From contig CAYSUJ010000002.1 in NCBI GenBank assembly GCA_964434285.1, positions 57,913-121,912 of the forward strand: DNA of 64,000 bases. Direction: 5' to 3'. Shown one piece after another: positions 1 to 50,601 of the stretch (within the stretch, counting starts at the first letter, position 1; the number at the start of each line of letters is the position of its first letter). The stretch is from an uncultured Candidatus Saccharibacteria bacterium. Its GTDB lineage: Bacteria > Patescibacteriota > Minisyncoccia > Phycocordibacterales > UBA2100. The position numbers and the translations under genes are program-made. Below the pieces are notes generated by a model. The model did not search any database and was not told where the DNA came from. It worked only from the letters and a program-made list of their open reading frames with translations.

Positions 1-6
1 GTGAAT

Positions 7-10963: not shown

Positions 10964-11739
10964 GACGCGGCGCACGCTTAGGACAGCATTTCTTGAACGC
11001 GGATTGGGTGGCTCGTGATCTAACGAAAAGCGTTGCCGTTCGGACAGGAGAGGCAATCCTCGAAATCGGTCCCGGCACCGGGGTACTGACTCGCCATCTG
11101 CTTGCGACCGGCGCACATGTAATCGCCATAGAGAAAGACGAGATACTCGTTGAAAAACTTAACGAGACATTTGCTGATGAAATTGACTCGGGCACATTCA
11201 CTCTCTTCGAGGGAGATGTGCGAGACGTCACCCCAGATACATTCCAACTCCCCACTTCCTATGTGCTCGCAGCAAATATTCCCTACTACATAACCGGTGA
11301 GATTATCCGCCACTTCCTCACCTCACTCCATCAACCGCGCGCGGCCGCTCTCTTGATCCAGAAAGAAGTGGCTGAACGTATTGTCGCTCGCGACGGCAAG
11401 GAAAGCATCCTCTCTCTTTCGGTCAAAGCCTATGGCAAGCCACGAATCGTGGCAAAAGTACCGGCAGGATGTTTTAATCCACCCCCATCAGTAGATTCCG
11501 CAATTATTCTTATTGACGATATATCCCGTGATTTCTTCGAAATAATACAGGAAGACGTCTTTTTCAGAATCGTGAAAGCCGGTTTTGCATCCAAGCGAAA
11601 AATGCTTGCGGGGAATTTGAAGGGTGTCACGTCACATGCGGGCGAAGTTTTGAAAGAAGCTGGGCTACCCGAAAAAGTGCGAGCTGAGGATGTTGATTTA
11701 GGGGGGTGGAGGAGGGTAGTTGAAAGATTGCAAAAGTAA
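10960..11739 (+). CDS. rsmA: 16S rRNA (adenine1518/1519-N6)-dimethyltransferase
   Basis: GQHFL start motif, SAM-binding LEIGPGTGVLT, NIPY motif. 259 aa. Start overlaps the pcrA stop. Confidence 0.85.
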   Translation: MRRGARLGQHFLNADWVARDLTKSVAVRTGEAILEIGPGTGVLTRHLLATGAHVIAIEKDEILVEKLNETFADEIDSGTFTLFEGDVRDVTPDTFQLPTSYVLAANIPYYITGEIIRHFLTSLHQPRAAALLIQKEVAERIVARDGKESILSLSVKAYGKPRIVAKVPAGCFNPPPSVDSAIILIDDISRDFFEIIQEDVFFRIVKAGFASKRKMLAGNLKGVTSHAGEVLKEAGLPEKVRAEDVDLGGWRRVVERLQK

Positions 11740-11852: not shown

Positions 11853-11878
11853 AAATCAGTGCTCAAGCACTGATTTTT
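11853..11878. terminator. bidirectional intrinsic terminator (perfect hairpin atcagtgct-caa-agcactgat flanked by A-run and T-run)
   Basis: Sequence gaaaaaatcagtgctcaagcactgatttttatt lies directly downstream of rsmA and of the minus-strand ORF ending at 11877. Confidence 0.6.
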
Positions 11879-12203
11879 ATTGGGAACTCCCCATCATATC
11901 TATATTGACGCCGGAATCGACTTGGATTGGGGCGAGAGACCAGACGCAATAATAGGGAGCACTTGCGAGACCAAGGAGCCACTGGCCGGTGCGACGCGGA
12001 GGACCGAACTGATAGGTGCGCGTCGCTGGCGTCCAGATGAAGGAGCCACCTCGCGGCCCTGATAGATACACCTGAATAGCGTTGTTGTAACAGGGACGAA
12101 CCATGGTGATCTGCCCACCAAACGGGAATGCATACGTTATATGAGGAATCGAGAGTGCGATCAGTAAACCCAAAGCAAAGACACGCATGTGCACAGTGTA
12201 CAT
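11877..12203 (-). CDS. small hypothetical secreted protein (signal peptide MRVFALGLLIALSIPHITYA)
   Basis: ORF ends exactly at the terminator hairpin and has an N-terminal signal-peptide-like segment. It overlaps the annotated N-terminal extension of the next plus-strand ORF, so only one of the two is likely real. Confidence 0.3.
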   Translation of the reverse strand: MYTVHMRVFALGLLIALSIPHITYAFPFGGQITMVRPCYNNAIQVYLSGPRGGSFIWTPATRTYQFGPPRRTGQWLLGLASAPYYCVWSLAPIQVDSGVNIDMMGSSQ

Positions 12204-12265
12204 CCTACGGCTTAGCCACAGCTATACTTACACACATGCTTCATGAGGGAGGGAACTATAACGAC

Positions 12266-13189
12266 ATGATAGGAACGCAAGCTCCCGAGATCGCCTCGAT
12301 TCCAAAAGTCGACGTAGAAATGCATAATTCTTGGATACAGCGTCATCCGTATGCGGCAGTCGCGATTGGCATCGGAGGAATCTTGATTCTCGGTGGCACG
12401 ATCGTGCTACAGCGTATGAGCGTCGCACCCACTCCTCAGAGCGGCTCGTGGGGAGGTGCCGGCGGTGCGTTTTTTGGCACGGTCAGAAATGCCACGCTTC
12501 TACACACTTCCCCCAACACAACCTCAAGCGGGGGCACCGACAATTATGCCGTCATTCCAATATACGACACTTCGTCGGGAGGAGAGGGAGTTACAGTGCC
12601 TGAAGGATTGGCCGAACTTCTTGCGCTCATTGTGCGCACAGACGATACGGGCACCACATCCACAGAAACCCCCAGCGCCTATTCATTCATCCCACAGGGG
12701 CTCGTGAGTGCTGAAAAACCCGCGAAACCACGGACACAGGCCCAGGATCGCCTGCACTCATACGGAAACGCAGTTGGCACGCTCGTGAAGCCGTTCGAAG
12801 ATAACGCACGCATCAATGCGCAAACACTCAAAAATCACACCGAGGATCGAAATAATCCGGAAAAAGCGGATCAACTTAACGCCCTCGCCCTCAATCTTGC
12901 GCAACTTGGCGTGGATATCTTGGCGACAACGGGCGTACCCGAGAGCGCCGCAGCAGCACATAAAGAATACGGCACCGCATATCGCATGCTTGGCACGCGC
13001 CTCGCGGCAATAACGAAAACACAGACGGATGAGGAGTTTTTAAATGCAATTGTGAGCTATAACACCGCTGCTGAGGAACTCACGAAGAAGTTTTTATTGC
13101 TGATTGCCATCTTTAATACTAACGAGATTACTTTTTCCTCATCAGAACCAGGCAGTATATTCATGTTTAGTGCGTCTGGGTCTCTCTAA
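12266..13189 (+). CDS. hypothetical membrane-anchored protein, first gene of the T4SS-like locus
   Basis: Single TM segment (AAVAIGIGGILILGGTIVLQ) then a Thr/Ser/Gly-rich region. No family recognised. ORF track starts at 12128; internal ATGs at 12266 and 12320 avoid the overlap with the minus ORF. Confidence 0.35.
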   Translation: MIGTQAPEIASIPKVDVEMHNSWIQRHPYAAVAIGIGGILILGGTIVLQRMSVAPTPQSGSWGGAGGAFFGTVRNATLLHTSPNTTSSGGTDNYAVIPIYDTSSGGEGVTVPEGLAELLALIVRTDDTGTTSTETPSAYSFIPQGLVSAEKPAKPRTQAQDRLHSYGNAVGTLVKPFEDNARINAQTLKNHTEDRNNPEKADQLNALALNLAQLGVDILATTGVPESAAAAHKEYGTAYRMLGTRLAAITKTQTDEEFLNAIVSYNTAAEELTKKFLLLIAIFNTNEITFSSSEPGSIFMFSASGSL

Positions 13190-13207
13190 GGGCGGTATAA
13201 TAGCGGG

Positions 13208-14050
13208 GTGAAAGCTCGTTTCTCCCGCGGCGCCTCTCCCATCGCTGTTGTCGCAGCGCTCTCTGTCGCGATACTTATTGCCACCATTGGCTCGGAATTA
13301 GGCGAGCGCTTGCGCCCTGCGCCCGTGCGTGAGGTGCAGGAGCCCTCACAAGCACGGGCGTATGTCCCCATAACGGACGCCGATGGCGATGGCGTACCCG
13401 ACTGGCAGGAGGAATTCTTTGGCGCGAACGCCTCTTCAACGGTCGCGTCTTCAACCGTACCGAGCGACCCGGTGGAAGCCTTTGGCGGCGCCGTCATGCA
13501 GTCACTTGTTTCTGGCTATCTCTCACTTAAAGAATATGATCAATACACGCCCGAACGGGGAGAGATCCTCGCCGAACGCCTTGCTGCGGAAATGAAGGCG
13601 CCCGTCATCTTCGTCCCCCACACGGAATCCGAACTCACCCTCGTTGCAGAGACCGGTGAGGCACAACTTTTACGCTACCGAAGCGATATGCGTGAAGCAC
13701 TTGCGCCAATGGTCGATCTCTCTGCGGAGCCTGAATTTTCACTCTATGCGCGTTATGTCGCGACGAACGATGTGGCATGGCTCGATAAGCTCTCTGAAAC
13801 CGCAGCACGATACCGTGCGGCCGAATCAGCCGCGCTCCAGGTCGAAGTACCCATGAGCGCGAAGGAGGTACATCTCCGCGCCGTGAACGCCCTTGGAAAG
13901 TATACGGAGACCTTGGAGCGACTTGTCCGCTTTGCGGACGACCCGATAGCCTCATTGGTGCTTTTGAGAACGTATAATGAAGATGAGCGAGAATTCCTTC
14001 TCGCGTTTGATGTATTGGCAAAATTTTATGTTGAGAACATTGAGAAATAG
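13208..14050 (+). CDS. hypothetical secreted/anchored protein (T4SS-like locus)
   Basis: N-terminal hydrophobic anchor (IAVVAALSVAILIATIG). 280 aa. No family recognised. Confidence 0.4.
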   Translation: MKARFSRGASPIAVVAALSVAILIATIGSELGERLRPAPVREVQEPSQARAYVPITDADGDGVPDWQEEFFGANASSTVASSTVPSDPVEAFGGAVMQSLVSGYLSLKEYDQYTPERGEILAERLAAEMKAPVIFVPHTESELTLVAETGEAQLLRYRSDMREALAPMVDLSAEPEFSLYARYVATNDVAWLDKLSETAARYRAAESAALQVEVPMSAKEVHLRAVNALGKYTETLERLVRFADDPIASLVLLRTYNEDEREFLLAFDVLAKFYVENIEK

Positions 14051-15635
14051 TGCACATACGTTAAAGCTTCTTCTTGGCTTCTCTCTTTTACTCTGCACAC
14101 CTTTTACGGCGCATGGCCAAGCTCAGCCAAATCCAAATAATCCTAATCTGATAAACAGCACGCCACAACAAATCGCTGCATCTTCAACACTCTCTAACGA
14201 CGGAATCTTCGGCTGTCGCGGCGTCGGTGCGCAAGTCGCTAATGTAGGAACACAAACAGCAATTGGAGGCGTGTACGTTCCCGTCAACGACGCTGCTGTG
14301 ACACTTAATACAGGATTTTTGGTATATAAGGAATGTATTCTTGATGGTGTCGCACGCAAAATCGCCGAAAATGTCTCGGCGGAGTATCTCAACCAAAGCT
14401 ACCGAGCCTTCAGTCGCGGTCGCGGCGGAAATCCGCAGTATGTGACGAATATTGGGGAAGAAATGCGACGCCAGGGAAATATTATTGTCGTAAACGCACT
14501 CCAGGGCACCTATCAAAACGCTCTTTGTCCAGCATTTAAAAATACGGTGGTAGGGGGCTATGCACGACAGTTCGTACGCTCTCAAAACTCACCAGCGTCT
14601 ACCATAACCTGCAGTCTACCGACAAACCAAGATAACTATTGGGAGACTCTTGCCGCGTTCAGGGAACGCCAAAATTACCCGTACGGTGCATACCAAATAC
14701 TCGAAACCCAACTCGACGCTACTCTTGCATATAATGAAAGAAATCAACGAGAGCGCTGGGGGTGGAACAGGGGCGTCTATGATGCGGTTGATACCATTGA
14801 CAACCCATTGAATGCACGTGTGATCACCCCCGGATTTCTTATTGCTGATTCAATATCTCAGCTCAGCGGTTCCGGCTTCCGCCAGCTTGAGAATGCGAAT
14901 GAAATTGATCAAGTGGTAGGAAACCTCTTCGGCGGACTCACCACGCAACTCATTTCCGACACCCGGGGGCTTGAGGGTCTAGCGCAATCCGTAAACGGCC
15001 AACCGTCATATCTCGACCGCATGACAGCGCAAACTTCAGCAAATGTGCGTCAGCAGGCGACAAACGCCGCCCTCTCCATCATCAGTTCCGCACGCCAGAT
15101 CGAGGTGAACTACCGCACTGCAAAAGAAGCGATTGCAACAGGGTTAAGTAACGCAATCGAGCAATTGCGCTCTGCCGAGCGCCAGTGTTGGGATCTCATC
15201 ATCCCGGCCGTACAAACCTACGCTACGGGACAGGGAGTCTCACAACTAAACATTGCGACGTCGACGCAATTCTCTCAACAAATTATTGATTCGCAGATTG
15301 CACCACTTGCAACAACAACCATTAATGAGATCCGCGCATCAGACACCACCATTGGCGCTTTGAACGAACTCATATCCAGCGTGTCCAACAGCGCCTCCCA
15401 AGCAAATCAGCAACAAGCACTCCTGCGCCTCGACACACTGGTTGCAAACGGCCAGCTCCGCACCGCACAAGACGCGACGAACGCCGCGCAACAGCGTGAC
15501 AATGTGCTCGGCGCGCTTACCACGCTGGTAACAGACACCGTAAAGGGCTGGGGGGATAGTCCTGATCCTAATATCGGTTGGTGTAACGTCAACAACACTG
15601 CGGTAGTCGAGCGGTGGTTCAATGCATGGAAATAA
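14028..15635 (+). CDS. hypothetical secreted protein (T4SS-like locus)
   Basis: Signal peptide LKLLLGFSLLLCTPFTAHGQA, rich in Q/N/A/T. About 535 aa from ATG 14028. ORF track start is 13977. Confidence 0.4.
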   Translation: MLRTLRNSAHTLKLLLGFSLLLCTPFTAHGQAQPNPNNPNLINSTPQQIAASSTLSNDGIFGCRGVGAQVANVGTQTAIGGVYVPVNDAAVTLNTGFLVYKECILDGVARKIAENVSAEYLNQSYRAFSRGRGGNPQYVTNIGEEMRRQGNIIVVNALQGTYQNALCPAFKNTVVGGYARQFVRSQNSPASTITCSLPTNQDNYWETLAAFRERQNYPYGAYQILETQLDATLAYNERNQRERWGWNRGVYDAVDTIDNPLNARVITPGFLIADSISQLSGSGFRQLENANEIDQVVGNLFGGLTTQLISDTRGLEGLAQSVNGQPSYLDRMTAQTSANVRQQATNAALSIISSARQIEVNYRTAKEAIATGLSNAIEQLRSAERQCWDLIIPAVQTYATGQGVSQLNIATSTQFSQQIIDSQIAPLATTTINEIRASDTTIGALNELISSVSNSASQANQQQALLRLDTLVANGQLRTAQDATNAAQQRDNVLGALTTLVTDTVKGWGDSPDPNIGWCNVNNTAVVERWFNAWK

Positions 15636-17826
15636 TATGGGCACACTCTTCCGTTCGTTCGCAGTAGTCGCTCTTGTGAGCGCCCTACTCGTACCATCCA
15701 TTTTTGCACAAGCACAAGGCACACCCGGTGTTGGCGGAACAGACACACAAGTAGAGAGTGGCGGCGGATCGGGGATCACCGATACCGCAGGAAACATGCT
15801 TGAATCTCCATCGCCCGGTGGTAAGTCGTGGTTTGAATCATGGATTTGGGACCCTCTACTTAACTTGCTCGGCACCTCACTCATGACACTCTCAGCAGTA
15901 GTACTCACTATTGCGGGTAAAGCATTTGATACGTTTTTAAAATTAATGATTCTCGACTTCCGCACCACTTTTGATGGCACCATCAAGGGGATCCAGATTG
16001 GGTGGCAATTGTTCCGCGATTTAGCCAATCTTGCAATCATTGGCATTTTTGTGTTTGTCGCAGTTATGACCATCCTGGGCAAAACTGAATTTGGTGCCAA
16101 AAAACTGATCGCTCGGGTGCTCATTGTTGCCGTCCTCATAAATTTCAGCCTCCTTTTTACCAATATCGCGATAGAGACCACAAATTTCCTCTCCACCAAA
16201 TTCTGGCAGGCAATGTCGCCCCAAATCAAAGATCAAGGCACTGCACAAACATTCCTGAAGGCGTTTGGAATCGAGAATTACTGGAGTGATTCGTCTAAAC
16301 TGGTATCTGGCGTCACCACAAACACAGGAAGTGGCCTCACGGGTTTCATGTATGGAGTCGTGGGCGCGATCGCGTTCCTCATGATCTCATACGTACTTTT
16401 GTATGGTGCATTTGTAATTACCGCACGAGCGCTCCTACTCATATTCGCACTCTTAACCTCCTCCATCGCGTTCGCATCCATTATGCTTCCCGACCATCTC
16501 GCAAAAACTTCATATGTAGGGTGGTATGCCTGGAAATCAAACCTCATCAAAGCTGCCATGTTTGGCCCTCTCCTTATTCTCTTCCTCTGGATAACCATGA
16601 AGATCATTCAAGAGGCCAATCCAAACGGAGCTGGGCGTGCGCTTTCTACACTCGCCCACACTCCCGAAAAAGTAACTCCGGAAGCATGGCAACAGATAAT
16701 CATACTTATGATCGGCACTGGCATTCTCTACATCGCCATCCGCTCCGCGGGCTCGTTTGCGAATTCCATTGCCGGATACAGTGATCTTAAATTCGGACTT
16801 GGAGCTTCACTTGCATACGGTTCGCGCGGGCTGGGGGTGGTCGGACGTAATACCGTGGGAAGATACGCGACATGGCGAGACCCCAAGAACGAACAAGCAT
16901 TGCTACTGGCGAAATCACGTCTTGCTAATTTGGAAAACCAAGGAATTAAGGGGTTCCAGCGCTGGCAGGCGCAATCTGAGGTAAGCAGGCTCGAGCGTAC
17001 GAAACGAAATTCTGCCCGGCTTGCCGGCGGCAGCTTCAACGCACTCAATTACGATGTAACTAAGAAGTTGGTGAAGAATCTCGGAGCCCAAGGGGCTCTC
17101 GGAGAAAAAAATAAGAGCTTTGAAGCTCGTCTGAAAGAGACAAGTAAAGAAGCGGCCAAGAAAGCCCTTACCGAGACCGTTTCAAAGAAAGACGCGATGA
17201 AATCAGCAGAAGAACTCACGCGACAACAAAAGGACATGCTGAAGCAACAGAAAGAGGGTGCTCAAAAAGTCGTGGAAGAGATCAGGAAATCTACCGTCCA
17301 GTCGGCAAGTGCACAAAAGGCAAGCGAACAGCACGCCGCCGCAGCAGAACGAGCAGAAAAAGTACGCTCCGACGCAGAGAGACAAAAGATTGACGTTGAC
17401 AGAGAACATTCCTCCGGAAATATAGACAAACAGAAGCGTGACGAGTTGATACGAGCACAGGATAACCGCATTGAGAAAGCAAATGAGGAAGTGCAAACTA
17501 CATTAAAGGCTATGGAGAGCATTAATCAGCCCCTTCGCGATGCAACCGCGAAATACGAGAAAATTGCCGAACAACACGAATCCTACGACGTGACAAAAGA
17601 AGCAGAGAAAATCGCAAGTAGAGTACTTGAAAACAACGTGGAAGCAATGAAAGAGAAGGCTGCCAAATATGCCTCGTGGCCCGGAACGAGAAACGGTCTC
17701 TTCGCTCAAGCGGCGCGTGCTCAGGTGAAAGAACAAAAGGCCAAGAAGGAGTCGGACGATAAATCATCCAAAGCATTCAAAAATACGCTGAAAGAAATGT
17801 TAAAGGATGTAGAGAAAGAAAAGTAA
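15622..17826 (+). CDS. polytopic membrane protein, VirB6/TrbL-like, with charged coiled-coil C-terminal tail
   Basis: At least 6 hydrophobic helices in residues 90-370, then a Lys/Glu-rich coiled-coil tail of ~300 aa. Its position upstream of VirB4 fits a VirB6/TrbL role. Confidence 0.45.
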   Translation: MHGNNMGTLFRSFAVVALVSALLVPSIFAQAQGTPGVGGTDTQVESGGGSGITDTAGNMLESPSPGGKSWFESWIWDPLLNLLGTSLMTLSAVVLTIAGKAFDTFLKLMILDFRTTFDGTIKGIQIGWQLFRDLANLAIIGIFVFVAVMTILGKTEFGAKKLIARVLIVAVLINFSLLFTNIAIETTNFLSTKFWQAMSPQIKDQGTAQTFLKAFGIENYWSDSSKLVSGVTTNTGSGLTGFMYGVVGAIAFLMISYVLLYGAFVITARALLLIFALLTSSIAFASIMLPDHLAKTSYVGWYAWKSNLIKAAMFGPLLILFLWITMKIIQEANPNGAGRALSTLAHTPEKVTPEAWQQIIILMIGTGILYIAIRSAGSFANSIAGYSDLKFGLGASLAYGSRGLGVVGRNTVGRYATWRDPKNEQALLLAKSRLANLENQGIKGFQRWQAQSEVSRLERTKRNSARLAGGSFNALNYDVTKKLVKNLGAQGALGEKNKSFEARLKETSKEAAKKALTETVSKKDAMKSAEELTRQQKDMLKQQKEGAQKVVEEIRKSTVQSASAQKASEQHAAAAERAEKVRSDAERQKIDVDREHSSGNIDKQKRDELIRAQDNRIEKANEEVQTTLKAMESINQPLRDATAKYEKIAEQHESYDVTKEAEKIASRVLENNVEAMKEKAAKYASWPGTRNGLFAQAARAQVKEQKAKKESDDKSSKAFKNTLKEMLKDVEKEK

Positions 17827-17828
17827 GA

Positions 17829-18398
17829 ATGAGTATGGATGTAAACAAAGACTTTAAAGAAGCCCTTGCCCAGCGATTTAAGGAACTTCCCGCGCCGGTG
17901 CAGCAAGCCATAACATCGAGTGACATTGAGAAACGATTGCGCGAACTCGCCACCCAGCACCGACTTCACGTCGATCAATGGGATGCACTTGAAAATGAGG
18001 TTATGCTTGCCTTGCTTGGATTTGAACATCCGCAGGATCTTGAGAAAAACTTACGCAGTGCGCTTGGTGTAAGCGGCGAGACTGTGCAACATGTCGCACA
18101 AGATATAAACAGGATAGTATTCGAACCAATTCGCGAGGAGCTTGAGCGCCAGCTCGAACACCCACGGGCACAGGAAAAACAGCTCACAGGTGCCGAGGAA
18201 GCGCGGGAACAGCTCTTAAGGGGACAAAAAGCGAGTGACGCACCCCCTGTAACAACCCCTCCCGCCCCAACACCCCCCGCACCAAAAACAGATGCGACGG
18301 TGGCGCGTGCGCCCACGTCCGGCGCTTACAAACCCGGCGAAACTTCAATGGTGCGTAAATCAGTTGCTGACGACCCATATCGTGAATTGCCACAGTAA
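17829..18398 (+). CDS. hypothetical protein with Pro/Ala/Thr-rich C-terminus (T4SS-like locus)
   Basis: 189 aa, no family recognised. Tightly packed after the previous gene, 2-nt gap. Confidence 0.3.
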   Translation: MSMDVNKDFKEALAQRFKELPAPVQQAITSSDIEKRLRELATQHRLHVDQWDALENEVMLALLGFEHPQDLEKNLRSALGVSGETVQHVAQDINRIVFEPIREELERQLEHPRAQEKQLTGAEEAREQLLRGQKASDAPPVTTPPAPTPPAPKTDATVARAPTSGAYKPGETSMVRKSVADDPYRELPQ

Positions 18399-18427
18399 CA
18401 CCTCAATTCATTGGTATAATCTGGGGA

Positions 18428-18931
18428 ATGCAGTTCCAAGTGCCTCAATTCATCGAGGTCGAGGATAAGATCTTCGGACCACTTACGTTCAAACAATTCG
18501 TCTACGTTGCCGGGGGACTGGGCATCGCGTATATCCTCTGGCGCGCCCTTCCGACATTCCTTGCAGCCCCCCTTGGCCTCGCATTTGCAGGACTCGGCAT
18601 TGCGCTTGCCTTTGTACAGTACAACAGCCAGCCCTTCATCGTCGCCGTTGAGCACGCATTTTTCTACCTTATTCGCGGCAAGTTGTACCTCTGGAACAAC
18701 GAGCAGGCCGTTGCGCGCGCAAAAAAAACGAATCAAGAGACTGCTGCTTCGGCACAGGCACCGTATGTGCCACACCTTTCAGACAGCAAGCTCCACGAGC
18801 TCTCCTGGAGTCTTGATATCAACGAACGCATATCATCAGGCATCGCGAGCGGGGAAGACCGTGCACGAAATGTACCAACGGACGCACTTGTGGCGCCCGT
18901 ACGAACTGCTCGCGATGCGCTTCCCCAATAA
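18428..18931 (+). CDS. small two-TM membrane protein, VirB3/PrgI-like candidate
   Basis: Two hydrophobic helices (FVYVAGGLGIAYILWRAL, LGLAFAGLGIALAFV). Its size and position just before the VirB4 N-terminal-like ORF resemble VirB3/PrgI. Confidence 0.35.
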   Translation: MQFQVPQFIEVEDKIFGPLTFKQFVYVAGGLGIAYILWRALPTFLAAPLGLAFAGLGIALAFVQYNSQPFIVAVEHAFFYLIRGKLYLWNNEQAVARAKKTNQETAASAQAPYVPHLSDSKLHELSWSLDINERISSGIASGEDRARNVPTDALVAPVRTARDALPQ

Positions 18932-18933
18932 CT

Positions 18934-19596
18934 ATGCCCGAAGCATCTACGATTCGCTCAAAAAACCGCTCTACACAAGAGTTTGTGCCGATTTCTGAGG
19001 TGCGCGACGGCATTATTGTGCTTCGCGACGGCGGGCTTCGAGCAATCCTCCTTGCTTCATCGATCAACTTCGCCCTCAAATCCGAAGATGAACAAACGGC
19101 ATTTATCGTGCAGTTTCAAAACTTTCTAAACTCTCTCGATTTTTCGTGCCAAATATTCGTTGAATCGCGCATGTTAGACATCCGCCCGTATATCGCCACC
19201 CTTGAAGTGGCATATAAAAACCAGATCGATGACCTCATGCGAATACAGATCCGCGAGTACATCGAGTTTATAAAGAGCTTCACCGAGGCGGCAAATATCA
19301 TGACAAAGAATTTCTTTGTAGTGGTGCCATATGCCGCATCGTCCCTCCCTTCCATTAGTGGTGGTGTGGGGGGGAAAATATTCGGCGCAAAAAATGCACC
19401 GAGCGCGGCTGATGCGAACCGCACGTTTGAAGAAAAAGTCTCGCAACTTGAGCAGCGTATTGCCATTGTCCAACAGGGCCTTGTCCGCTGCGGTGTACGC
19501 ACCGTGCAACTCGGCACCGAGGAGGCAATCGAGCTCTTCTACAAACTCTTCAATCCTGGGGAGGAGGGAAAGCCAATGCCTCTCAATAGTGAATAG
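18934..19596 (+). CDS. VirB4/TrbE N-terminal-domain-like protein, putative detached N-terminal part of VirB4
   Basis: The pattern VPISEVRDGIIVLRDGGLRAILLASSINFALKSEDEQ resembles the conserved N-terminal region of VirB4/TrbE/CagE ATPases. The downstream ATPase ORF lacks that region. 220 aa. Confidence 0.4.
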   Translation: MPEASTIRSKNRSTQEFVPISEVRDGIIVLRDGGLRAILLASSINFALKSEDEQTAFIVQFQNFLNSLDFSCQIFVESRMLDIRPYIATLEVAYKNQIDDLMRIQIREYIEFIKSFTEAANIMTKNFFVVVPYAASSLPSISGGVGGKIFGAKNAPSAADANRTFEEKVSQLEQRIAIVQQGLVRCGVRTVQLGTEEAIELFYKLFNPGEEGKPMPLNSE

Positions 19597-19601
19597 TGTG
19601 T

Positions 19602-19680
19602 AGACTGTAGTTTGTAGTCGGGGAAATCGGATACAATAGTATCTATGTGCACATTCACTACAGACTACAAACTACAGTCT
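19602..19680. repeat. 18-bp perfect inverted repeat (agactgtagtttgtagtc / gactacaaactacagtct) with a 43-nt spacer, between the two VirB4 parts
   Basis: Read directly from the sequence: arms at 19602-19619 and 19663-19680. Confidence 0.8.
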
Positions 19681-19693
19681 GCAGACTAACCCT

Positions 19694-21643
19694 ATGGGAT
19701 TATTCGATCTTTTTTCAAAAGGGGGGGCGGAACCGGCAGCGGTTTTACCCGTACTTCCAGAAGAAATCTACCGCACAGGCGTGCTTGGTCTTCAAGACGT
19801 CATTGCTCCCCACGCCCTCAAGGTCAATTCACGAGAACTGGACTTGGGCGAGAAAATTGCGCGGACATTCTTTGTGATTTCCTACCCCCGGTTCCTCACG
19901 ACGGGCTGGTTCGCACCCATCATCAATATCGACAAGGTTCTGGATGTTTCAATCTTCGTTCACCCCATGGATACGAACGAGATGCTTCGTAAATTTCAGA
20001 AAAAGGTCGCAGAGGTTCAATCACAGATCTCGACTCGTGAAGAGAAGGGGATGGTGCGTGACCCCGTCCTCGACACGGCCTATCAAGACCTTGAAAAGCT
20101 ACGTGATTCTTTACAACAAGCGCAGGAACGCATCTTTGAAGTGGGGCTTTACCTTACGATTTACGGCAACACCCGCGAAGAAATCGACAAAACCGAGAGC
20201 GAAATCCGCTCTATTCTTGAATCGCGCCTTGTCTACATCCGTCCTGCGTTGTTCCAGCAAGAACAAGGGTTCCGCTCGGTAATTCCGCTCGCAACAGACG
20301 AACTCGGCGTGCATACTAAGCTCAATTCCGCACCACTTTCCTCAATTTTCCCCTTTATTTCATTCGACCTCACGTCCGATAGGGGAATTTTGTATGGCAT
20401 CAACCGCCACAATTCATCGCTTATACTTTTCGACCGTTTCTCACTTGAAAACTACAATTCGGTTACGTTCGCAAAGTCGGGTTCGGGGAAAAGCTATACA
20501 ACTAAACTAGAAATTCTCCGCTCCCTCATGTTTGACACCGAGGTGATCGTGATCGACCCGGAACGCGAGTATGAATACCTCGCAGAGACAGTCGGTGGGC
20601 GTTATTTCAATATCTCACTTTCATCAGAGCACCACATCAATCCGTTTGATCTTGCAATACCGCGCGAAGACGAGTCTCCGGGCGACGTGCTCCGCAACAA
20701 CATCATTACGCTCGTGGGTCTTTTCCGCATTATGCTCGGCGGTTTGACACCAGAAGAAGATGCAATTATTGATAAAGCGATCACCGAAACCTACGCCTTG
20801 AAAGACATCACCGCAGACGCCAACTTCGCTTCTATCGAGCCGCCGCTCCTCTCGGACTTCGAACTCGTGCTCTCTGGCATGGAAGGATCGGAATCTCTCG
20901 TTGCACGTCTTTCAAAGTACACCAAAGGCACCTGGGCAGGATTCATGAACCGCCCAACAAACGTCGACATGAACAAGAAGCTCATCGTCTTTTCTGTGCG
21001 CGACATGGAGGATGATCTGAAGCCCGTCGCCATGTACATCATCACGCACCACATCTGGAACGCCGTGCGCAAAGAACTCCGCAAGCGCCTCCTCGTGATC
21101 GATGAGGCGTGGTGGATGATGAAATCGGAAGACACAGCATCCTTCCTCTTCGGCATCGCGAAGCGCGGCCGCAAATACTATCTCGGCCTCTCAACCATCA
21201 CCCAAGACGTAAATGACTTTCTTACGTCGCCCTACGGAGCGGCCATGATCACCAACTCATCAATCCAGTTACTCCTGCGCCAGTCACCAACATCGGTCGA
21301 TCTCGTCCAGCAAACGTTCAAACTTTCTGATGAAGAAAAGTATCTCCTCCTCGAATCAGATGTGGGGGAGGGGATCTTTTTCGCAGGCTTGAAGCACGTC
21401 GCGATCAAGGTCATTGCCTCGTATACCGAAGACCAAATCATTACCTCTGACCCGTCTCAGATTCTTGCCATCAAAAAGGCCAAGCAGGAACTTGTCGCCT
21501 CGCAAGATGTGCCGCCAACACCTGTCAGCTACGAGGCACGTAGTGCTGCGGCAGACGTACTCAAGAACGCGGAATTAAAGAGTGCGAGTGGGGCAACCCA
21601 GCAAGCTCCTAGTGAGCCCCCGCTCCCGCCCGGTGTTGTATGA
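19694..21643 (+). CDS. type IV secretion/conjugation ATPase VirB4 (TraE/TrsE-type), ATPase domain
   Basis: Walker A FAKSGSGKSYT and Walker B LLVIDEAWWMM. The region YPRFLTTGWFAPIIN is typical of Gram-positive-type VirB4. 649 aa. Confidence 0.8.
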   Translation: MGLFDLFSKGGAEPAAVLPVLPEEIYRTGVLGLQDVIAPHALKVNSRELDLGEKIARTFFVISYPRFLTTGWFAPIINIDKVLDVSIFVHPMDTNEMLRKFQKKVAEVQSQISTREEKGMVRDPVLDTAYQDLEKLRDSLQQAQERIFEVGLYLTIYGNTREEIDKTESEIRSILESRLVYIRPALFQQEQGFRSVIPLATDELGVHTKLNSAPLSSIFPFISFDLTSDRGILYGINRHNSSLILFDRFSLENYNSVTFAKSGSGKSYTTKLEILRSLMFDTEVIVIDPEREYEYLAETVGGRYFNISLSSEHHINPFDLAIPREDESPGDVLRNNIITLVGLFRIMLGGLTPEEDAIIDKAITETYALKDITADANFASIEPPLLSDFELVLSGMEGSESLVARLSKYTKGTWAGFMNRPTNVDMNKKLIVFSVRDMEDDLKPVAMYIITHHIWNAVRKELRKRLLVIDEAWWMMKSEDTASFLFGIAKRGRKYYLGLSTITQDVNDFLTSPYGAAMITNSSIQLLLRQSPTSVDLVQQTFKLSDEEKYLLLESDVGEGIFFAGLKHVAIKVIASYTEDQIITSDPSQILAIKKAKQELVASQDVPPTPVSYEARSAAADVLKNAELKSASGATQQAPSEPPLPPGVV

Positions 21644-22647
21644 GGGTCATAATCGTAGCACTCGCACTTCTCATCGCGCTTCCCGTGCATGCACAATCAT
21701 TTGTGACCGGTATTGAACGTACGCTTTCCATTACTACCACCCCCGCCTTTCCAACAGCAGGCGAGCCGGTGACGCTTTCGCTTGATGGCTACGCCGTTGA
21801 TATTGATCGCAGTATGGTCGTATGGTACGTGGATGAAAAGGAGATAAAACGGGGGTCAGGACTGCGCACCCTTGAAGTACAGGCGCCACCAATCGGTTCG
21901 GAAAAAAGGGTGCGCGCAGTAGCAGAAGAACCGTCAGGAATTCTGGCAACGGGCGAAGCAGCGCTACGCCCAGGATCCGTAACACTCATGTGGGAAGCAG
22001 ATTCGTACACTCCACCATTCTATCGAGGAAGGGCGCTTCCTGGATCCCAAAGCCCCATCCGCGCACAGGCGGTTCCCGATCTTCGACGCGACGCGGCTCG
22101 CATACCGACCAACGACATTGTTTTTACATGGCTTCGAGATGGCGCTCGGTTTGCCTCGGGTCGCGGGCTCACCTCAGTCACTTTTGCCGGACCGTCGCTA
22201 TTCGATATGGATAGAATTACTGTGGTTGCGGAATCGCTTGATGGCACCATCGTCGCTCGTGATGAAACAAATCTCCGAGGAGCCGACCCTAAAATAGAAC
22301 TATATGAGCACCATCCACTTTTTGGCACACTATACCACCGCGCGTTTGTGGGAACCGTTATAAATAGGGAAGCCGAACAAAAATTTGCCGCCGTGCCATT
22401 TTTTGCACCCCACTCACCACGTGATCCGAACCTTATATACAAATGGATGGTGAACACCACACCAATCGAACCGGGACCTACGACACCCGATATACTCACC
22501 ATCCGCCGCGAAGATGCCTTCGCAGGCATCATCACGATCGGACTGACACTCACGAGTATTTCTAACATATTCTTCCAAGCAACCAATGCATGGACCGTAC
22601 ACCTCTCAAGTGATGTGGTATCCAATAATCCATTTCTCGGCCTATGA
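21640..22647 (+). CDS. hypothetical secreted protein (T4SS-like locus)
   Basis: Signal peptide MRVIIVALALLIALPVHAQS. Start overlaps the VirB4 stop (ATGA). Confidence 0.4.
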   Translation: MRVIIVALALLIALPVHAQSFVTGIERTLSITTTPAFPTAGEPVTLSLDGYAVDIDRSMVVWYVDEKEIKRGSGLRTLEVQAPPIGSEKRVRAVAEEPSGILATGEAALRPGSVTLMWEADSYTPPFYRGRALPGSQSPIRAQAVPDLRRDAARIPTNDIVFTWLRDGARFASGRGLTSVTFAGPSLFDMDRITVVAESLDGTIVARDETNLRGADPKIELYEHHPLFGTLYHRAFVGTVINREAEQKFAAVPFFAPHSPRDPNLIYKWMVNTTPIEPGPTTPDILTIRREDAFAGIITIGLTLTSISNIFFQATNAWTVHLSSDVVSNNPFLGL

Positions 22648-23858
22648 AGATCTCCGTTAATCACGATACATTTCGCCTGGTTGGCATCGCCGCCATCGTA
22701 TTTCTCCTTGTAGGCCTTGGTGGGTGGTATGTGTTTCTGTCAGGAAGAACGACCGAGGTCGCATTAACAGGTGAATCACGCGGTTTTTCGGTCGGCATCC
22801 CTTCATTTTCAGGAAGTCGCGGATCTACTCTGGAGAACTTAGTGCAAGGTCTTCCACTCAACGAGGAGGTACACGTCGCTACATCATCACATCCTCGCCC
22901 GCCTCGACTATGGCAGGTCAATCAAACACCCGTTGCAGGAGCGGGATTTGTGATACAAGGAAGCACTACACTAATTCGCTTCGTCGAACGATCGAACGGT
23001 CACGTTTTTGATGCAAATGTCGAAACAGGCGAGGTGGCCCGCCGCACAAACACATCACTCGGCACCATATATGATGCACAGATCGGCTCCATAGAAGGCC
23101 TTTTACTCCGCACACTTGATGCCAGTAGTACGGTCCACACGCTTATTGGAGCATTTGGCACCACAACGGAAAACGACCTTCAAGAGTTAAACGTAGTAGA
23201 CGTTGGCCCAACTCACACCATCACATTTCGGGGTGATACACCTCTTTTACTTGTGGGAGATACGGAGAGCCGCCTTGTTGCCTCCACAACAAACTCAAAG
23301 GAACGGGCGCTCTTCACATCACCTATTCGTAAGTGGCACATTACACGCGCCGACCCTCTCATTGTCGCGGAGCCCGCAGCAAGTGGCATTCTCGGTAGCG
23401 CATTCAGCGTCGGCACAGGAGGAGTTTTAACAAACGTTGCCACAAAAAAAGGGCTTACCATTGCAGCACATCCTGAGAGTAATGTGTTTCTGGTGGGGGA
23501 AGAGGGCGAGAACCTTGCGCTCTCGGTCCTGTCAGGGACTACTACACGATCGCTGAGCATCCAAACTATTGCTGAAAAGTGCATATGGGCTCCGGGGAGA
23601 GCACTCATTGCCTACTGCGCCGTCCCCAAAGAAGCGCCGAAGTCCGGATTTCTCGACGCTTGGTACCGCGGCGCAACTCATACCAGTGACCGATGGTACA
23701 CTGTCGAATCCGCAACGGGAGCAAGTGAAATACTCTATACACCCAGTGAAGATATCGAGCTTGATGTAGAATTTCCAGCAATCGATGAAAGCGCGCGCTA
23801 TATGCTCTTCATAAATGCTCGTGATAAATCCCTCTGGGCATTGCGAATCTATGAATAA
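22644..23858 (+). CDS. hypothetical membrane-anchored protein (T4SS-like locus)
   Basis: N-terminal TM LVGIAAIVFLLVGLGGWYVFL. 404 aa. Start overlaps the previous stop. Confidence 0.4.
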   Translation: MKISVNHDTFRLVGIAAIVFLLVGLGGWYVFLSGRTTEVALTGESRGFSVGIPSFSGSRGSTLENLVQGLPLNEEVHVATSSHPRPPRLWQVNQTPVAGAGFVIQGSTTLIRFVERSNGHVFDANVETGEVARRTNTSLGTIYDAQIGSIEGLLLRTLDASSTVHTLIGAFGTTTENDLQELNVVDVGPTHTITFRGDTPLLLVGDTESRLVASTTNSKERALFTSPIRKWHITRADPLIVAEPAASGILGSAFSVGTGGVLTNVATKKGLTIAAHPESNVFLVGEEGENLALSVLSGTTTRSLSIQTIAEKCIWAPGRALIAYCAVPKEAPKSGFLDAWYRGATHTSDRWYTVESATGASEILYTPSEDIELDVEFPAIDESARYMLFINARDKSLWALRIYE

Positions 23859-24258
23859 AATTGCCCAAGGTTCCACAACAGTCACCCCATTTCCTGGAGG
23901 AGGTTCCGTTGGCACCCAAGTGCCCACAAATCAAATTCGCCCACTGAGCCAGCTTTTTGACCAAAACTCGTCGCTCGCCGACTTCTTCCAAGCGCTTTTT
24001 TATACCGCAATCGCGGTCGGCGCGACGCTCGCTGTCTTACGGCTTGGATACGCCGGATTCTTATACATGGGCGGCGATTCCTTTGGAAAAATATCCGAAG
24101 CAAAGAGAATCATGCAAGATGTTGTGGTTGGCCTCCTCCTCTTACTCGCCGTATATGTCATCCTTAATCAGATCAACCCTGACATCCTGAATCTCGACGT
24201 CTTGCGCAGCGTCCAGTCATCGCAGCAAGCTCCGGCAACAAATACGTTTACACAGTAG
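23851..24258 (+). CDS. small two-helix hydrophobic protein, VirB2/TrbC pilin-like candidate
   Basis: Two hydrophobic segments (ALFYTAIAVGATLAVLRLGYAGFLYM and VVVGLLLLLAVYVILNQI) in a ~135-aa protein at the end of the T4SS-like operon. Start ATG 23851 overlaps the upstream stop. Confidence 0.35.
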   Translation: MNKIAQGSTTVTPFPGGGSVGTQVPTNQIRPLSQLFDQNSSLADFFQALFYTAIAVGATLAVLRLGYAGFLYMGGDSFGKISEAKRIMQDVVVGLLLLLAVYVILNQINPDILNLDVLRSVQSSQQAPATNTFTQ

Positions 24259-24721
24259 CGTCGCTCGTGTAGCGAATAACGACACGGCGAGAGCGCCCCT
24301 CACCTTGAGACTCAGTCTTTATATTGGGTGCGTCCTGGAGTGTGGTGTGGACAATAAGGCGTTCGTACGCACTCATGGGGGACAGCTCAACGTCATACTG
24401 AAACGACCGCGCACGCTCGGCCATCATCAAGGCCTTCGTCTGTAAATCGCGAATTTGACGCGAACGATAGTCATTTACATCGACGAGAAAGTGCGGCTCC
24501 TCCCCGGTCTCTCCAGCCTTGGCCCGGTTATGCTCCACAATGCGCTTCACAAGATAATCGAGGGCGTGGACGGTGTCGCCGTGGGTTCCTATAAGTGCTT
24601 TCCCGTCGGGCGCATTCACCGAGAGCACCATCTGTCCAGCGATATCTATTTCGGTCACATCAGAGTAGGGAATCCCAATTGCGTCGAGAAGGGAGTGAAG
24701 AATCGACTGCGGAGATTGCAT
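24248..24721 (-). CDS. jag: Jag/KhpB-like RNA-binding protein (KH + R3H domains)
   Basis: R3H-like motif region and the conserved position downstream of yidC. 157 aa. Confidence 0.7.
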   Translation of the reverse strand: MQSPQSILHSLLDAIGIPYSDVTEIDIAGQMVLSVNAPDGKALIGTHGDTVHALDYLVKRIVEHNRAKAGETGEEPHFLVDVNDYRSRQIRDLQTKALMMAERARSFQYDVELSPMSAYERLIVHTTLQDAPNIKTESQGEGRSRRVVIRYTSDATV

Positions 24722-24762
24722 ATCCTCCTTGTATCACAATTCCAGTGGCGAACCAAGTTGTG

Positions 24763-25497
24763 CTACACCTTGTTTTGTTTTAAACCGCGCCCCATGAGTA
24801 ATTCTTGACCAATCATAAAAATGTTGCTGGTCGCCCAGTAGAGGGGGAGAGCGGCTGAAAGACTGTATGAAATGGCGGTAAACAAGACAGGGAGGACATA
24901 ACGCGCTTGTAAGTCGAAGCTGCGCGCCATATCAGCAGAAAACGAGGCCTCTTCGGTATGCATTTTCGGCTGACGCGGCCCCATGGAGAGGCGTGTGTAG
25001 ATATATTGGGTCACACCAGTAAGAAGCGCCAAAAGAAGGCTCCTTTCGCCCATGTCTATCAGACCAAGAAACGACATGTCTACCTTCGGCGGTGCAGGTA
25101 TAAAACCGTAGAGAATTTCGCTATTAATGGCCGGCAATCCACCTTTCCAAAAGACCCAGTACAGTCCGAAAAGTATGGGAAGTTGGAGGAGAACGAGGAA
25201 AAATGTCGAAAAGGGGCGTATACCCCTCTCCTTATAGAGTGCGAACATGGCGCGCGCCTGCTCTTCCTGATTATCCTTGTATTTCGTTTTAAGCGCCTCC
25301 ATCTCCGGCGCAATCGCACGCATTGCGACCTGTGTACGTATAGCCTGTCGTGAGAGGGGAATGAGGAGTACTTTAACGGCGAGCGTGAGAATGATGACGG
25401 CAATACCCACATCGTGCCCAGGCACGATGTCTATGAGATACACGAGGGCATTATACAGCGGCTCGTAGATTCCCTCGTTGAATGCCGCGCGAAACAT
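24763..25497 (-). CDS. yidC: membrane protein insertase YidC (short Gram-positive/Oxa1-like form)
   Basis: Conserved YidC core with multiple TM helices. 244 aa. Sits in the canonical rnpA-yidC-jag context. Confidence 0.85.
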   Translation of the reverse strand: MFRAAFNEGIYEPLYNALVYLIDIVPGHDVGIAVIILTLAVKVLLIPLSRQAIRTQVAMRAIAPEMEALKTKYKDNQEEQARAMFALYKERGIRPFSTFFLVLLQLPILFGLYWVFWKGGLPAINSEILYGFIPAPPKVDMSFLGLIDMGERSLLLALLTGVTQYIYTRLSMGPRQPKMHTEEASFSADMARSFDLQARYVLPVLFTAISYSLSAALPLYWATSNIFMIGQELLMGRGLKQNKV

Positions 25498-25515
25498 CCG
25501 CGCATTGTAGCGCGG

Positions 25516-25866: not shown

Positions 25867-26000
25867 TAGGCGGCGAGGCGTGCGCGTCCCTTGCGCAAGC
25901 GACGCTGGATGACGCGTCGGCCGTTTTTGGTAGCAAGACGGGCGCGATACCCGTGTGTTCGAGCGCGCTTTCGTTTCTTTGGCTGGTAGTTTCGCTTCAT
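25866..26000 (-). CDS. rpmH: 50S ribosomal protein L34
   Basis: Hand translation gives [44 protein letters not shown]. It is below the 60-aa ORF-track threshold. Confidence 0.9.
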
Positions 26001-50566: not shown

Positions 50567-50601
50567 CTATATGACAGGAGTTGATACCACAATCTGTAAG
50601 G

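Follow-up and report, generated by a model that had tools for sequence, protein, structure and literature searches.

A chromosomal type IV secretion system operon of the Patescibacteria type, probably not conjugative, in the dnaA region of an uncultured bacterium

Analysis of a 64,000-nucleotide stretch of DNA (the window) from an uncultured Candidatus Saccharibacteria bacterium revealed 11 tightly packed genes on the + strand, from about 12266/12320 to 24258, which form a single operon. The operon encodes a VirB4 ATPase, a TrsD-like protein, a PrgI/VirB3 protein, an extended VirB6-like protein, a VirB2-like pilin, and six conserved unknown proteins. Each of the 11 genes was found again in related loci. 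The operon very probably encodes a chromosomal type IV secretion system (T4SS) of Patescibacteria, derived from monoderm (MPF-FATA) conjugation machinery and no longer serving as a conjugation system. The locus is a typical member of the published T4SS that the ultra-small Patescibacteria carry next to their origin of replication and not a new kind of machine.

An earlier note on this DNA had described a tightly packed single-strand array at 12128 to 24258 (+) with twelve genes, in which three genes for secreted proteins followed the first gene and preceded the VirB6-like one. The packing was borne out by the junctions, which measure, in order, 18, 7, -14, 2, 29, 2, 97, -4, -4, and -8 nt and include overlaps of stop and start codons (e.g., a 4-nt overlap of the virB4 stop with the g9 start). 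The gene number has to be corrected to 11 same-strand ORFs, with only two genes instead of three in that interval. The features of the locus and its flanks are as follows:

10960 to 11739: ksgA
11877 to 12203, - strand: orf108, small secreted protein (ORF; tblastn conservation)
12204 to 12319, no strand: divergent intergenic region, putative promoter region of the T4SS operon (gene layout)
12320 to 13189, + strand: g1, bitopic membrane protein with C-terminal helical ectodomain (hydrophobicity, alignment)
13208 to 14050, + strand: g2, N-terminally anchored protein (transmembrane [TM] segment at aa 9 to 27)
14058 to 15635, + strand: g3, all-alpha secreted protein, about 525 aa long (signal peptide)
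15622 to 17826, + strand: g4, putative extended VirB6-like polytopic channel protein (predicted structure)
17829 to 18398, + strand: g5, soluble, presumably cytoplasmic protein (lacks a TM segment)
18428 to 18931, + strand: PrgI/VirB3-like small membrane protein (Pfam PF12666)
18934 to 19596, + strand: TrsD-like protein, the VirB4 N-terminal domain as a separate gene (NCBIfam)
19694 to 21643, + strand: VirB4 ATPase, monoderm CD1110/MPF-FATA type (NCBIfam NF045971, Pfam, PDB)
21640 to 22647, + strand: g9, secreted protein with Ig-like beta-sandwich domains (profile search against PDB)
22644 to 23858, + strand: g10, N-terminally anchored protein with TolB-like beta-propeller ectodomain (profile search against PDB)
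23851 to 24258, + strand: VirB2-like T4SS pilin with two hydrophobic helices (PF18895 match, topology)
24248 to 26000, - strand: jag, yidC, rnpA, rpmH
from 26188: dnaA
from 27713: dnaN

The ORF of g1 opens at 12128, the position from which the earlier note had started the first gene. This ATG is doubted as the start because a conserved minus-strand gene overlaps it and because the alignment of the g1 family begins at M65 (12320) or possibly at M47 (12266). The true start is therefore probably 12320 (or 12266), about 140 to 190 nt further downstream. The overlapping gene, orf108, is divergent from the operon and antisense to the 5' part of the long g1 ORF. It encodes a protein with the signal peptide MRVFALGLLIALSIPHITYA and two Cys residues; an NCBIfam scan of this protein gave no match. 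A tblastn search revealed orf108 in 19 related loci, in the same place between ksgA and g1, with 40 to 64% identity, and whether it is part of the T4SS is uncertain. The layout of the divergent genes suggests that the region at 12204 to 12319 contains the promoter of the operon. A scan for the sigma-70 consensus gave nothing above chance.

Profile searches confirmed the ATPase of the system. VirB4 scored 362 bits against NCBIfam NF045971 (CD1110 family; cut-off, 325 bits) and matched the Pfam P-loop_TraG model (E = 1.5e-25) and the VirB4 C-terminal domain structure in the Protein Data Bank (PDB entry 4ag5; E = 5.6e-42). Its P-loop (AKSGSGKS) and Walker B motif (LLVIDE) are intact. The earlier description of VirB4 as an N-domain plus an ATPase was also correct, in that the 220-aa ORF covers positions 2 to 120 of the CD1110 VirB4 model and the 649-aa ORF covers positions 186 to 733. 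The 220-aa TrsD-like protein matched NCBIfam NF041427 TrsD/TraD (E = 1.4e-7) as well as the N-terminal positions of the VirB4 models Mbov_0397 and CD1110.

For comparison, the best 80 of at least 572 genomic relatives, all of them Patescibacteria metagenome-assembled genomes (MAGs), were used. In 78 of these best 80 loci, the TrsD-like ORF is separate and immediately precedes virB4. VirB4 is 74 to 92% identical to the VirB4 proteins of the best 80 Patescibacteria loci and only 28 to 36% identical to the best plasmid VirB4s; judged by percent identity, it thus sides with the VirB4s of Patescibacteria and not with those of conjugative elements. Its profile matches place it, at the sequence level, in the MPF-FATA (monoderm) affinity. 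Weak matches of VirB4 to NCBIfam CedB (E = 8.6e-10) and CedD (E = 8e-3) reflect shared ATPase ancestry only. The small protein proposed as VirB3/PrgI-like matched Pfam PF12666 PrgI (E = 2.1e-9; 38.2 bits versus a cut-off of 27), and its gene is present in 76 of the best 80 loci with a median identity of 49%.

The g4 protein carries a signal peptide and about 7 TM helices (aa ~70 to 430) and ends in a 304-aa tail rich in K (14.8%), E (11.8%), and A (13.5%), in agreement with the polytopic protein with a Lys/Glu tail of about 300 aa described earlier. Pfam sequence models gave no match to this copy of g4. Comparison of its predicted fold with 48,164 PDB chains revealed DotA and TrwI/VirB6 as the top matches, in line with the earlier VirB6/TrbL-like reading. 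The structural prediction suggests that g4 is an extended VirB6 homolog, whose tail would be cytoplasmic. The product of the last gene had been called a pilin-like two-helix protein. Its two-helix topology was confirmed, and it matched PF18895 (E = 2.4e-4) with 21.5 bits, under the cut-off of 26.6; close homologs (74 to 85% identity) carry PF18895. At the N terminus, about 40 hydrophilic residues occupy the place of a signal peptide, as they do in 9 close relatives, and no signal peptide was found in any frame. In more distant relatives, the pilin begins with a classical signal peptide.

The remaining six proteins gave no match among the published T4SS profiles and library models searched. Alignment of the g1 and g2 families with hhalign (A4 versus A1) gave a probability of 95.6% (E = 1.2e-8), and the g2 HMM matched g1 at 5e-6, indicating that the two are paralogs with a common helical domain of about 130 aa. 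The TM segment of g1 is located at about aa 76 to 94 (long-ORF numbering). Searching the PDB revealed no natural relative of g1, and g2 had no match in Pfam, NCBIfam, or PDB. The g3 protein, with a signal peptide (...TAHG/QAQ) and conserved Cys pairs, belongs to a large unannotated family of extracellular helical proteins, some of which carry fn3 and Big_6 domains; it is a candidate surface or tip component. In the g5 protein, a Pro-rich linker separates a conserved N-terminal domain from a C-terminal D-P-Y-R-E motif that is nearly invariant. The protein has no TM segment and no relative in Pfam or PDB, and it is present in 56 of the best 80 loci. The g9 protein (signal peptide ...VHA/QS; 77 of the best 80 loci) resembled the Ig-like Hoc protein in a profile search against PDB (E = 5.4e-4), and members of its family match Ig_3, PKD_6, and BiPBP_C. 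The profile of g10 (TM segment at aa 15 to 33, conserved Cys; 71 of the best 80 loci) matched TolB propellers (E = 1e-3 to 9e-3).

The earlier note had seen no VirD4, relaxase, or VirB11. In agreement with this, Pfam and NCBIfam scans detected no VirD4/T4CP, relaxase, or VirB11 among the scanned ORFs of the window, nor in the 7.5 kb beyond its left edge, i.e., in about 71 kb of genome. VirD4 homologs far from virB4 have been reported in many Patescibacteria (PMC12102498). No VirB7/9/10 outer-membrane core component or VirB11 was matched by Pfam or NCBIfam among the operon proteins. Neither a VirB8-like protein (PrgL/TraM/TcpC) nor a VirB1-like hydrolase was found in the operon by Pfam, NCBIfam, and PDB-profile searches, with g1 and g2 covered at the level of sequence profiles. 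Since a relaxase and a coupling protein are absent at the locus, DNA self-transfer is unlikely. The locus is thus probably not conjugative, which agrees with the published view of Patescibacteria T4SSs (PMC12102498, PMC10633639). Overall, HMM, fold, and synteny evidence supports the main reading of the earlier note, namely a T4SS-like locus with VirB6-, VirB3/PrgI-, VirB4-, and VirB2-like parts.

The operon is flanked by pcrA-ksgA on one side and by jag-yidC-rnpA-rpmH/dnaA-dnaN on the other. These neighbors and the GC-skew minimum at 26 to 28 kb place it in an origin-proximal core context. In 49 of the best 80 (of at least 572) related Paceibacteria (Parcubacteria) genomes, the whole stretch pcrA-ksgA-[operon]-jag-yidC-rnpA-dnaA-dnaN shows the same gene order, which provides the comparison of synteny with related T4SS loci that had been suggested. 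Across the same best 80 relatives, VirB4 (median identity, 78%) is better conserved than DnaA (median, 54%). All ORFs of the operon described here are intact. The GC content of the operon is 0.513, compared to 0.537 and 0.525 in the flanking core and 0.483 and 0.397 in the foreign islands of the window. The lower-than-core GC claimed earlier was therefore not upheld, and the hint of foreign origin drawn from it gave way to core GC, housekeeping neighbors by dnaA, and collinearity in dozens of related species. An M23+LysM peptidase is encoded at 7694 to 8764, three genes upstream of the operon on the opposite strand. The only ATPase of the T2SSE family that was matched, a 570-aa protein with an MshEN domain (PilB type), is encoded on the opposite strand at 33881 to 35593, at a distance of 10 kb from the operon.

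An ordinary or decaying conjugative element (ICE), with a relaxase and VirD4 just beyond the inspected region, is an extremely improbable explanation. VirB4, TrsD, and PrgI have homologs among the MPF-FATA genes of conjugation, and the window does hold integrative elements that encode serine and tyrosine recombinases. However, these enzymes are carried by two distinct islands, one of which interrupts comM while the other lies at a tRNA-Ser; both islands differ in GC from the operon and are separated from it by core genes. A location of the operon on a mobile element was rejected on the basis of the core flanks, the core GC, and the conserved synteny among species-level genomes. Together with the conservation of the intact ORFs and the absence of relaxase and T4CP in about 71 kb, this context largely refutes the ICE reading.

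In the proposed mechanism, VirB4/TrsD would dock via PrgI on the VirB6 channel in a single membrane and would drive pilin extraction and polymerization, giving a short pilus or stalk across the wall. The accessory proteins, secreted and anchored, would form the wall-spanning or host-contact part of the machine, which would move macromolecules at the epibiont-host interface. We lean toward pilus-mediated contact and protein export to the host, with import of host material as the main alternative. In the latter case, which appears rather unlikely, the apparatus would work inwards (compare the H. pylori ComB T4SS and archaeal Ced) and acquire DNA, RNA, nucleotides, or other building blocks from the host that these bacteria are unable to synthesize. 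Such import has precedent and has been explicitly proposed (PMC11665869), and it would fit the absence of coupling protein and relaxase at the locus and, within the limit given above, the CedB/CedD matches. On the other hand, ComEC-dependent competence of Southlakia epibionticum is separable from T4SS essentiality (PMC12857230, PMC11665869), no DNA-binding or nuclease component was recognized among the operon proteins, and the sequence gives no indication of transport direction. A purely adhesive organelle, i.e., a VirB2-type pilus with a surface complex for host attachment and no translocated substrate, is improbable. It would accommodate the translational coupling of the pilin gene to the accessory genes, the Ig-like and propeller surface proteins, the fn3 and Big_6 domains on g3 relatives, and the essential pilin arrays of S. 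epibionticum (PMC12102498, PMC10633639). Yet the fact that an extended VirB6 channel protein has been kept points to a conduit, Patescibacteria already adhere by type IV pili (PMC12206443), with the PilB-type ATPase encoded in the window, and no computational feature sets the adhesive reading apart.

A Patescibacteria T4SS of the same architecture and chromosomal context has been described (Quinonero-Coronel et al. 2025, Microb Genom, PMC12102498), including the absence of a relaxase, the TrsD/PrgI/VirB6/VirB2 content, and the site near dnaA, ksgA, rnpA, and rpmH; these systems are reviewed in PMC12857230. The present locus shares with that clade a VirB4 of MPF-FATA ancestry, the TrsD-like ORF adjoining virB4, PrgI/VirB3, VirB6, the PF18895 VirB2-like pilin, the lack of relaxase and T4CP nearby, and the dnaA, dnaN, rnpA, rpmH, and ksgA neighbors reported for Paceibacteria (PMC12102498). 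It differs in having one pilin gene instead of an array and, in this subclade, a pilin without a signal peptide. The T4SS of S. epibionticum (SEML1_0006-0019), which has pilins and lacks a relaxase and a coupling protein, is essential for epibiotic growth by Tn-seq (Wang et al. 2023, Cell, PMC10633639). Downstream of its virB4 are peptidase and lysozyme homologs (PMC12102498), whereas the Ig-like and TolB-like propeller proteins are encoded here. The novelty implied by the earlier note is thus not supported for the system itself and holds in part for its accessory proteins. Since several of these remain unannotated families, the locus is fairly called a source of uncharacterized T4SS-associated components. 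New here are fold-level observations: the g1/g2 paralogy, the Ig-like g9, the TolB-like g10, the helical family of g3, and the missing pilin signal peptide in this subclade.

With MPF-FATA systems (pGO1 TrsC/TrsD/TrsE, pCF10 PrgH/PrgI/PrgJ, and CTn2 CD1110), the locus shares a VirB4 that passes the CD1110-family model, a TrsD-like N-domain protein with a gene of its own (a trait of the pGO1 subclass), a PrgI family member, and a single-membrane architecture without VirB7/9/10. In contrast to these systems, neither a relaxase nor a coupling protein was recognized in the operon, nor a VirB1-type hydrolase or a VirB8-like gene; the locus is not part of a mobile element, and its VirB4 is distant from plasmid VirB4s. 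It also encodes a VirB2-like pilin, which the Gram-positive systems lack.

The gene for a secreted helical protein (g3) directly upstream of the VirB6-like g4 mirrors the operon order virB5-virB6 of Agrobacterium. A VirB2-like pilin is likewise shared with diderm VirB/D4 systems, represented by TrwI/VirB6 of R388 (PDB entry 7o3v) and DotA of Legionella Dot/Icm (PDB entry 9ngy). Unlike these, the present locus has no VirB7/9/10 outer-membrane core and no VirB11, and g4 bears the charged 304-aa tail of the "extended VirB6" type (PMC12857230). The B. pertussis Ptl, Brucella VirB, and H. pylori ComB systems, which have non-conjugative roles, likewise function with neither a relaxase nor a coupling protein encoded at the locus. 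They belong to the diderm MPF-T type and possess outer-membrane cores, and orthology to the present locus is limited to VirB4, VirB3, VirB6, and VirB2.

Analysis of the plus strand between 12128 and 24258 revealed 11 ORFs, each encoding at least 140 amino acids, where an earlier note on this DNA had counted 12 genes. The gaps and overlaps along the row measure 18, 7, -14, 2, 29, 2, 97, -4, -4, and -8 nt, and junctions this tight fit a single operon. Consensus scans for promoters and terminators remained at chance level. A VirB4 scan of the GTDB species genomes yielded at least 572 relatives, of which the best 80 were used for comparison, and every protein of the window was searched against these 80 loci by tblastn.

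Genes of the operon and their conservation in the best 80 of at least 572 VirB4-matching loci (loci with a match; median identity)
12320-13189, plus strand: g1, accessory protein with a C-terminal helical domain; 17/80; 31%
13208-14050, plus strand: g2, accessory protein with the same type of domain; 24/80; 30%
14058-15635, plus strand: g3, secreted helical protein; 34/80; 25%
15622-17826, plus strand: g4, VirB6-like protein; 61/80; 27%
17829-18398, plus strand: g5, soluble protein; 56/80; 34%
18428-18931, plus strand: PrgI; 76/80; 49%
18934-19596, plus strand: TrsD-like protein; 78/80; 62%
19694-21643, plus strand: VirB4; 80/80; 78%
21640-22647, plus strand: g9, secreted Ig-like protein; 77/80; 29%
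22644-23858, plus strand: g10, anchored protein; 71/80; 27%
23851-24258, plus strand: VirB2-like pilin; 54/80; 37%

The first gene had been thought to start at 12128. This ATG is overlapped by orf108 (11877-12203, minus strand), which encodes a 108-aa product that carries a signal peptide and contains two Cys residues. orf108 recurs at the equivalent position in 19 related genomes (40 to 64% identity) and is better conserved than g1 to g3; it gave no family match and runs antisense across the start annotated for the first T4SS gene. Members of the g1 family align from M65 onwards, so the start is most likely 12320, or else 12266, a candidate preceded by GGAGG. Only two proteins are encoded between gene 1 and the VirB6-like gene, and not the three secreted proteins proposed.

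Library searches named 4 of the 11 ORFs: VirB4, the TrsD-like protein, PrgI, and the pilin. The VirB4 call was upheld in the HMM search, in which the 649-aa ATPase (19694-21643) reached 362 bits with the NCBIfam model for CD1110-family VirB4 (cut-off, 325). This protein also matched Pfam P-loop_TraG (E value of 1.5e-25) and contains the P-loop AKSGSGKS and the Walker B motif LLVIDE; its closest solved relative is the C-terminal domain of Thermoanaerobacter VirB4 (Protein Data Bank entry 4ag5, E value of 5.6e-42). The ATPase ORF covers positions 186 to 733 of the CD1110 model, and the 220-aa ORF directly upstream of virB4 (18934-19596) aligns with positions 2 to 120 of the same model and also matches the TrsD/TraD family. 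Since the two ORFs cover separate parts of the model, the description as an N-domain plus an ATPase was correct. A frameshifted VirB4 was rejected because TrsD and VirB4 each have an intact ORF of their own in 78 of the 80 related loci, an arrangement shared with the pGO1 subclass. PrgI (167 aa, 18428-18931) scored 38.2 bits on the Pfam PrgI model (cut-off, 27). No extra paralogues, such as further pilins or a second VirB4, were found in the window. Few proteins of the region are as constrained as the T4SS motor: VirB4 is 74 to 92% identical across the 80 relatives (median, 78%), with medians of 54% for DnaA and 40% for DnaN. Its envelope-exposed partners diverge much faster (25 to 35% identity).

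The g4 protein (734 aa, 15622-17826) gave no Pfam or NCBIfam match for this copy. Three of 25 orthologues match TrbL/VirB6 (best E value, 7.7e-5), and PF04610 is carried by 1 of 108 database homologues. The Lys/Glu-rich tail of about 300 residues noted earlier was confirmed by measuring its composition (304 residues; 14.8% K, 11.8% E, and 13.5% A). Given the cleavable signal peptide of g4 and its roughly seven hydrophobic helices, we infer that this tail is cytoplasmic. Such proteins have been named "extended VirB6" in a recent review (PMC12857230). The last ORF (23851-24258) matched T4SS_pilin (PF18895) just below the cut-off (E value of 2.4e-4), and the domain is present in many homologues, including some with 74 to 85% identity. 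In this pilin and at least nine close relatives, the N terminus is hydrophilic over about 40 residues, and no reading frame supplies a signal peptide; more distant orthologues carry classical signal peptides. A sequence-profile search of PDB chains with the pilin gave nothing useful.

The same held for the profiles of g1, g2, g3, and g5; a match of g1 to a designed coiled coil was due to helical composition only. The two proteins g1 and g2 are paralogues: they have in common a helical domain, about 130 residues long, at the C terminus (hhalign probability of 95.6%, E value of 1.2e-8), and the g2 HMM matches g1 at 5e-6. The g3 protein (about 525 aa) is secreted and belongs to a very large unannotated family, for which 318 word-indexed homologues (every one a hypothetical protein) and, at an E value of ≤1e-10, 2,103 cluster representatives were counted. 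Its predicted model is all-alpha (pLDDT of 76.7) with helices of up to 74 residues, and the most conserved block (residues 49 to 95, with C53 and C93) is modelled at low confidence. In the longer members of the family, fn3 or Big_6 domains are found at the N terminus, in keeping with a position at the cell surface. The g5 protein is soluble, has an almost invariant C-terminal DPYRE motif, and gave no detectable relatives. The g9 protein is secreted and Ig-like; its profile matches Hoc (E value of 5.4e-4) and members of its family match Ig_3, PKD_6, and BiPBP_C. The g10 protein is anchored and has a TolB-like beta-propeller (E value of about 1e-3 to 9e-3).

The operon is preceded by genes for an M23 peptidase with LysM repeats, PcrA/UvrD, and KsgA; its downstream neighbours are jag, yidC, rnpA, and rpmH on the opposite strand and, beyond these, dnaA and dnaN. 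In 49 of the 80 loci, the genes from pcrA-ksgA through dnaA-dnaN form one collinear block. These 80 best matches are all Patescibacteria MAGs (74 to 92% VirB4 identity), labelled Kaiser-, Nomura-, Campbell-, Taylor-, or Adlerbacteria, Paceibacterota, or Parcubacteria, with many assemblies under the generic name Saccharibacteria. The origin was assigned because of gene order and the cumulative GC skew minimum at 26 to 28 kb; DnaA-box clustering, scanned to locate oriC, was not above chance. If the origin lies at rpmH/dnaA, the 12-kb operon (12266-24258) would be transcribed origin-ward, head-on to replication, and its orientation towards rpmH/dnaA is retained in related genomes.

A mobile element or ICE was rejected on flanks, GC content, and synteny, and both recombinase-bearing islands of the window are separate from the operon. 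The locus has a GC content of 0.513, near that of the core flanks (0.537 and 0.525), and true islands are lower (0.483 on the left and 0.397 on the right), so the argument from a lower-than-core GC content fails. As the earlier note had stated, VirD4, a relaxase, and VirB11 are absent from the scanned ORFs of the window, and the 7.5 kb beyond its left edge likewise contain no coupling protein, relaxase, or VirB11. The PilB-type ATPase at 33881-35593 (minus strand) was rejected as VirB11: it has 570 aa and an MshEN domain and is encoded 10 kb away on the opposite strand. This protein, the only T2SSE-family ATPase of the window, is encoded between the ruv genes and polA, belongs to type IV pilus or competence machinery, and is separate from the T4SS. 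The M23 peptidase with LysM repeats (7694-8764, minus strand), three genes upstream of the operon, is a possible stand-in for a VirB1-type wall hydrolase.

Across Patescibacteria, a T4SS with a monophyletic VirB4 clade related to MPF-FATA has been described, in which TrsD is the commonest associated component, PrgI/VirB3, VirB6, and VirB2-like pilins are encoded near virB4, relaxases are almost absent, VirD4 homologues are seldom near virB4, and the Paceibacteria loci lie close to dnaA, dnaN, rnpA, ksgA, and rpmH (Quinonero-Coronel et al. 2025, PMC12102498). In the window locus, all testable features of that T4SS were found and those that define a conjugative element were not; the locus is therefore a member of the system already described. 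The reasoning of the earlier note was sound, and its conclusion is already in the literature. The locus is a clean, complete Paceibacteria example and adds no new principle. In Southlakia epibionticum, epibiotic growth requires the T4SS, which resembles Gram-positive conjugation systems, has essential pilins, and lacks recognizable coupling or relaxase proteins (Wang et al. 2023, PMC10633639). The Patescibacteria T4SS is the first T4SS reported to be essential to its bearer, and its role has been called unknown, with effector delivery or uptake under discussion (review, PMC12857230; perspective, PMC11665869), which places it among the more interesting open problems of ultra-small epibiont biology.

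The identities of the components, the operon layout, the place in the core chromosome, and the pattern of conservation are shown by the data; the mechanism is extrapolated from what is established for the T4SSs of R388 and of Gram-positive models (reviewed in PMC12857230). Together with TrsD, VirB4 would dock via PrgI/VirB3 on the VirB6 channel, and the VirB4 motor would drive pilin extraction and assembly, with the secreted and anchored proteins as the wall-crossing, host-contact part. We lean towards contact and export as the function; import is the main rival. It is rather unlikely that the Paceibacteria version is a hybrid, with a monoderm VirB4/TrsD/PrgI motor building a diderm-style VirB6-VirB5-VirB2 stalk and pilus. 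In such a hybrid, g3, encoded directly upstream of the VirB6-like gene, may be a functional analogue of VirB5 (tip/stalk), the Ig-like protein, the TolB-like propeller, and g1/g2 may take the place of VirB8 and VirB1 in spanning the wall and contacting the host, and the pilin without a signal peptide may be inserted by a YidC-type route. If true, several families of T4SS components would be new, and the machine might also serve as a conduit for taking host material. The extended VirB6, the Ig-like and propeller proteins, the paralogous helical pair, and the very large secreted helical family provide fold-level handles on accessory genes left unannotated in published surveys. These genes are concrete targets for complex structure prediction and, given a manipulable Paceibacteria-host co-culture, for genetics.

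Two large ORFs to the right of the operon, at 39032-40285 (plus strand, 417 aa) and 45336-47657 (plus strand, 773 aa), gave no Pfam or NCBIfam match. On the left, as seen from the 7.5 kb beyond the window edge, an integrative element of about 9.4 kb interrupts comM, which encodes a Mg-chelatase-like competence protein (window 1-7640; L084 4044-15144). On the right, a low-GC island (48185-64000) is located at tRNA-Ser(tga) and looks like a defence island.

Features of the two islands
Left, no coordinates: S24 repressor-like gene
397-1578: Dcm cytosine methylase
3892-4626: RepO-like wHTH protein
5088-6866: large serine recombinase, adjoining the C-terminal comM fragment (6960-7640)
48185-48270: tRNA-Ser(tga)
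48258-49895, minus strand: serine recombinase, overlapping the 3' end of tRNA-Ser(tga)
54328-56781, 56786-58450, and 58440-59897: type I restriction-modification genes hsdR, hsdS, and hsdM
60391-61323: tyrosine integrase
Right, no coordinates: DUF2779 protein, FokI-like nuclease, HTH_17 protein

Two full-length copies of the LOOT RNA (RF03000) were found, at 2326-2444 (plus strand) and 62274-62396 (minus strand), scoring 70 and 78 bits (gathering threshold, 46.4). Each lies inside one integrated island, just upstream of a small ORF, which suggests that mobile elements of this lineage carry the LOOT RNA along.
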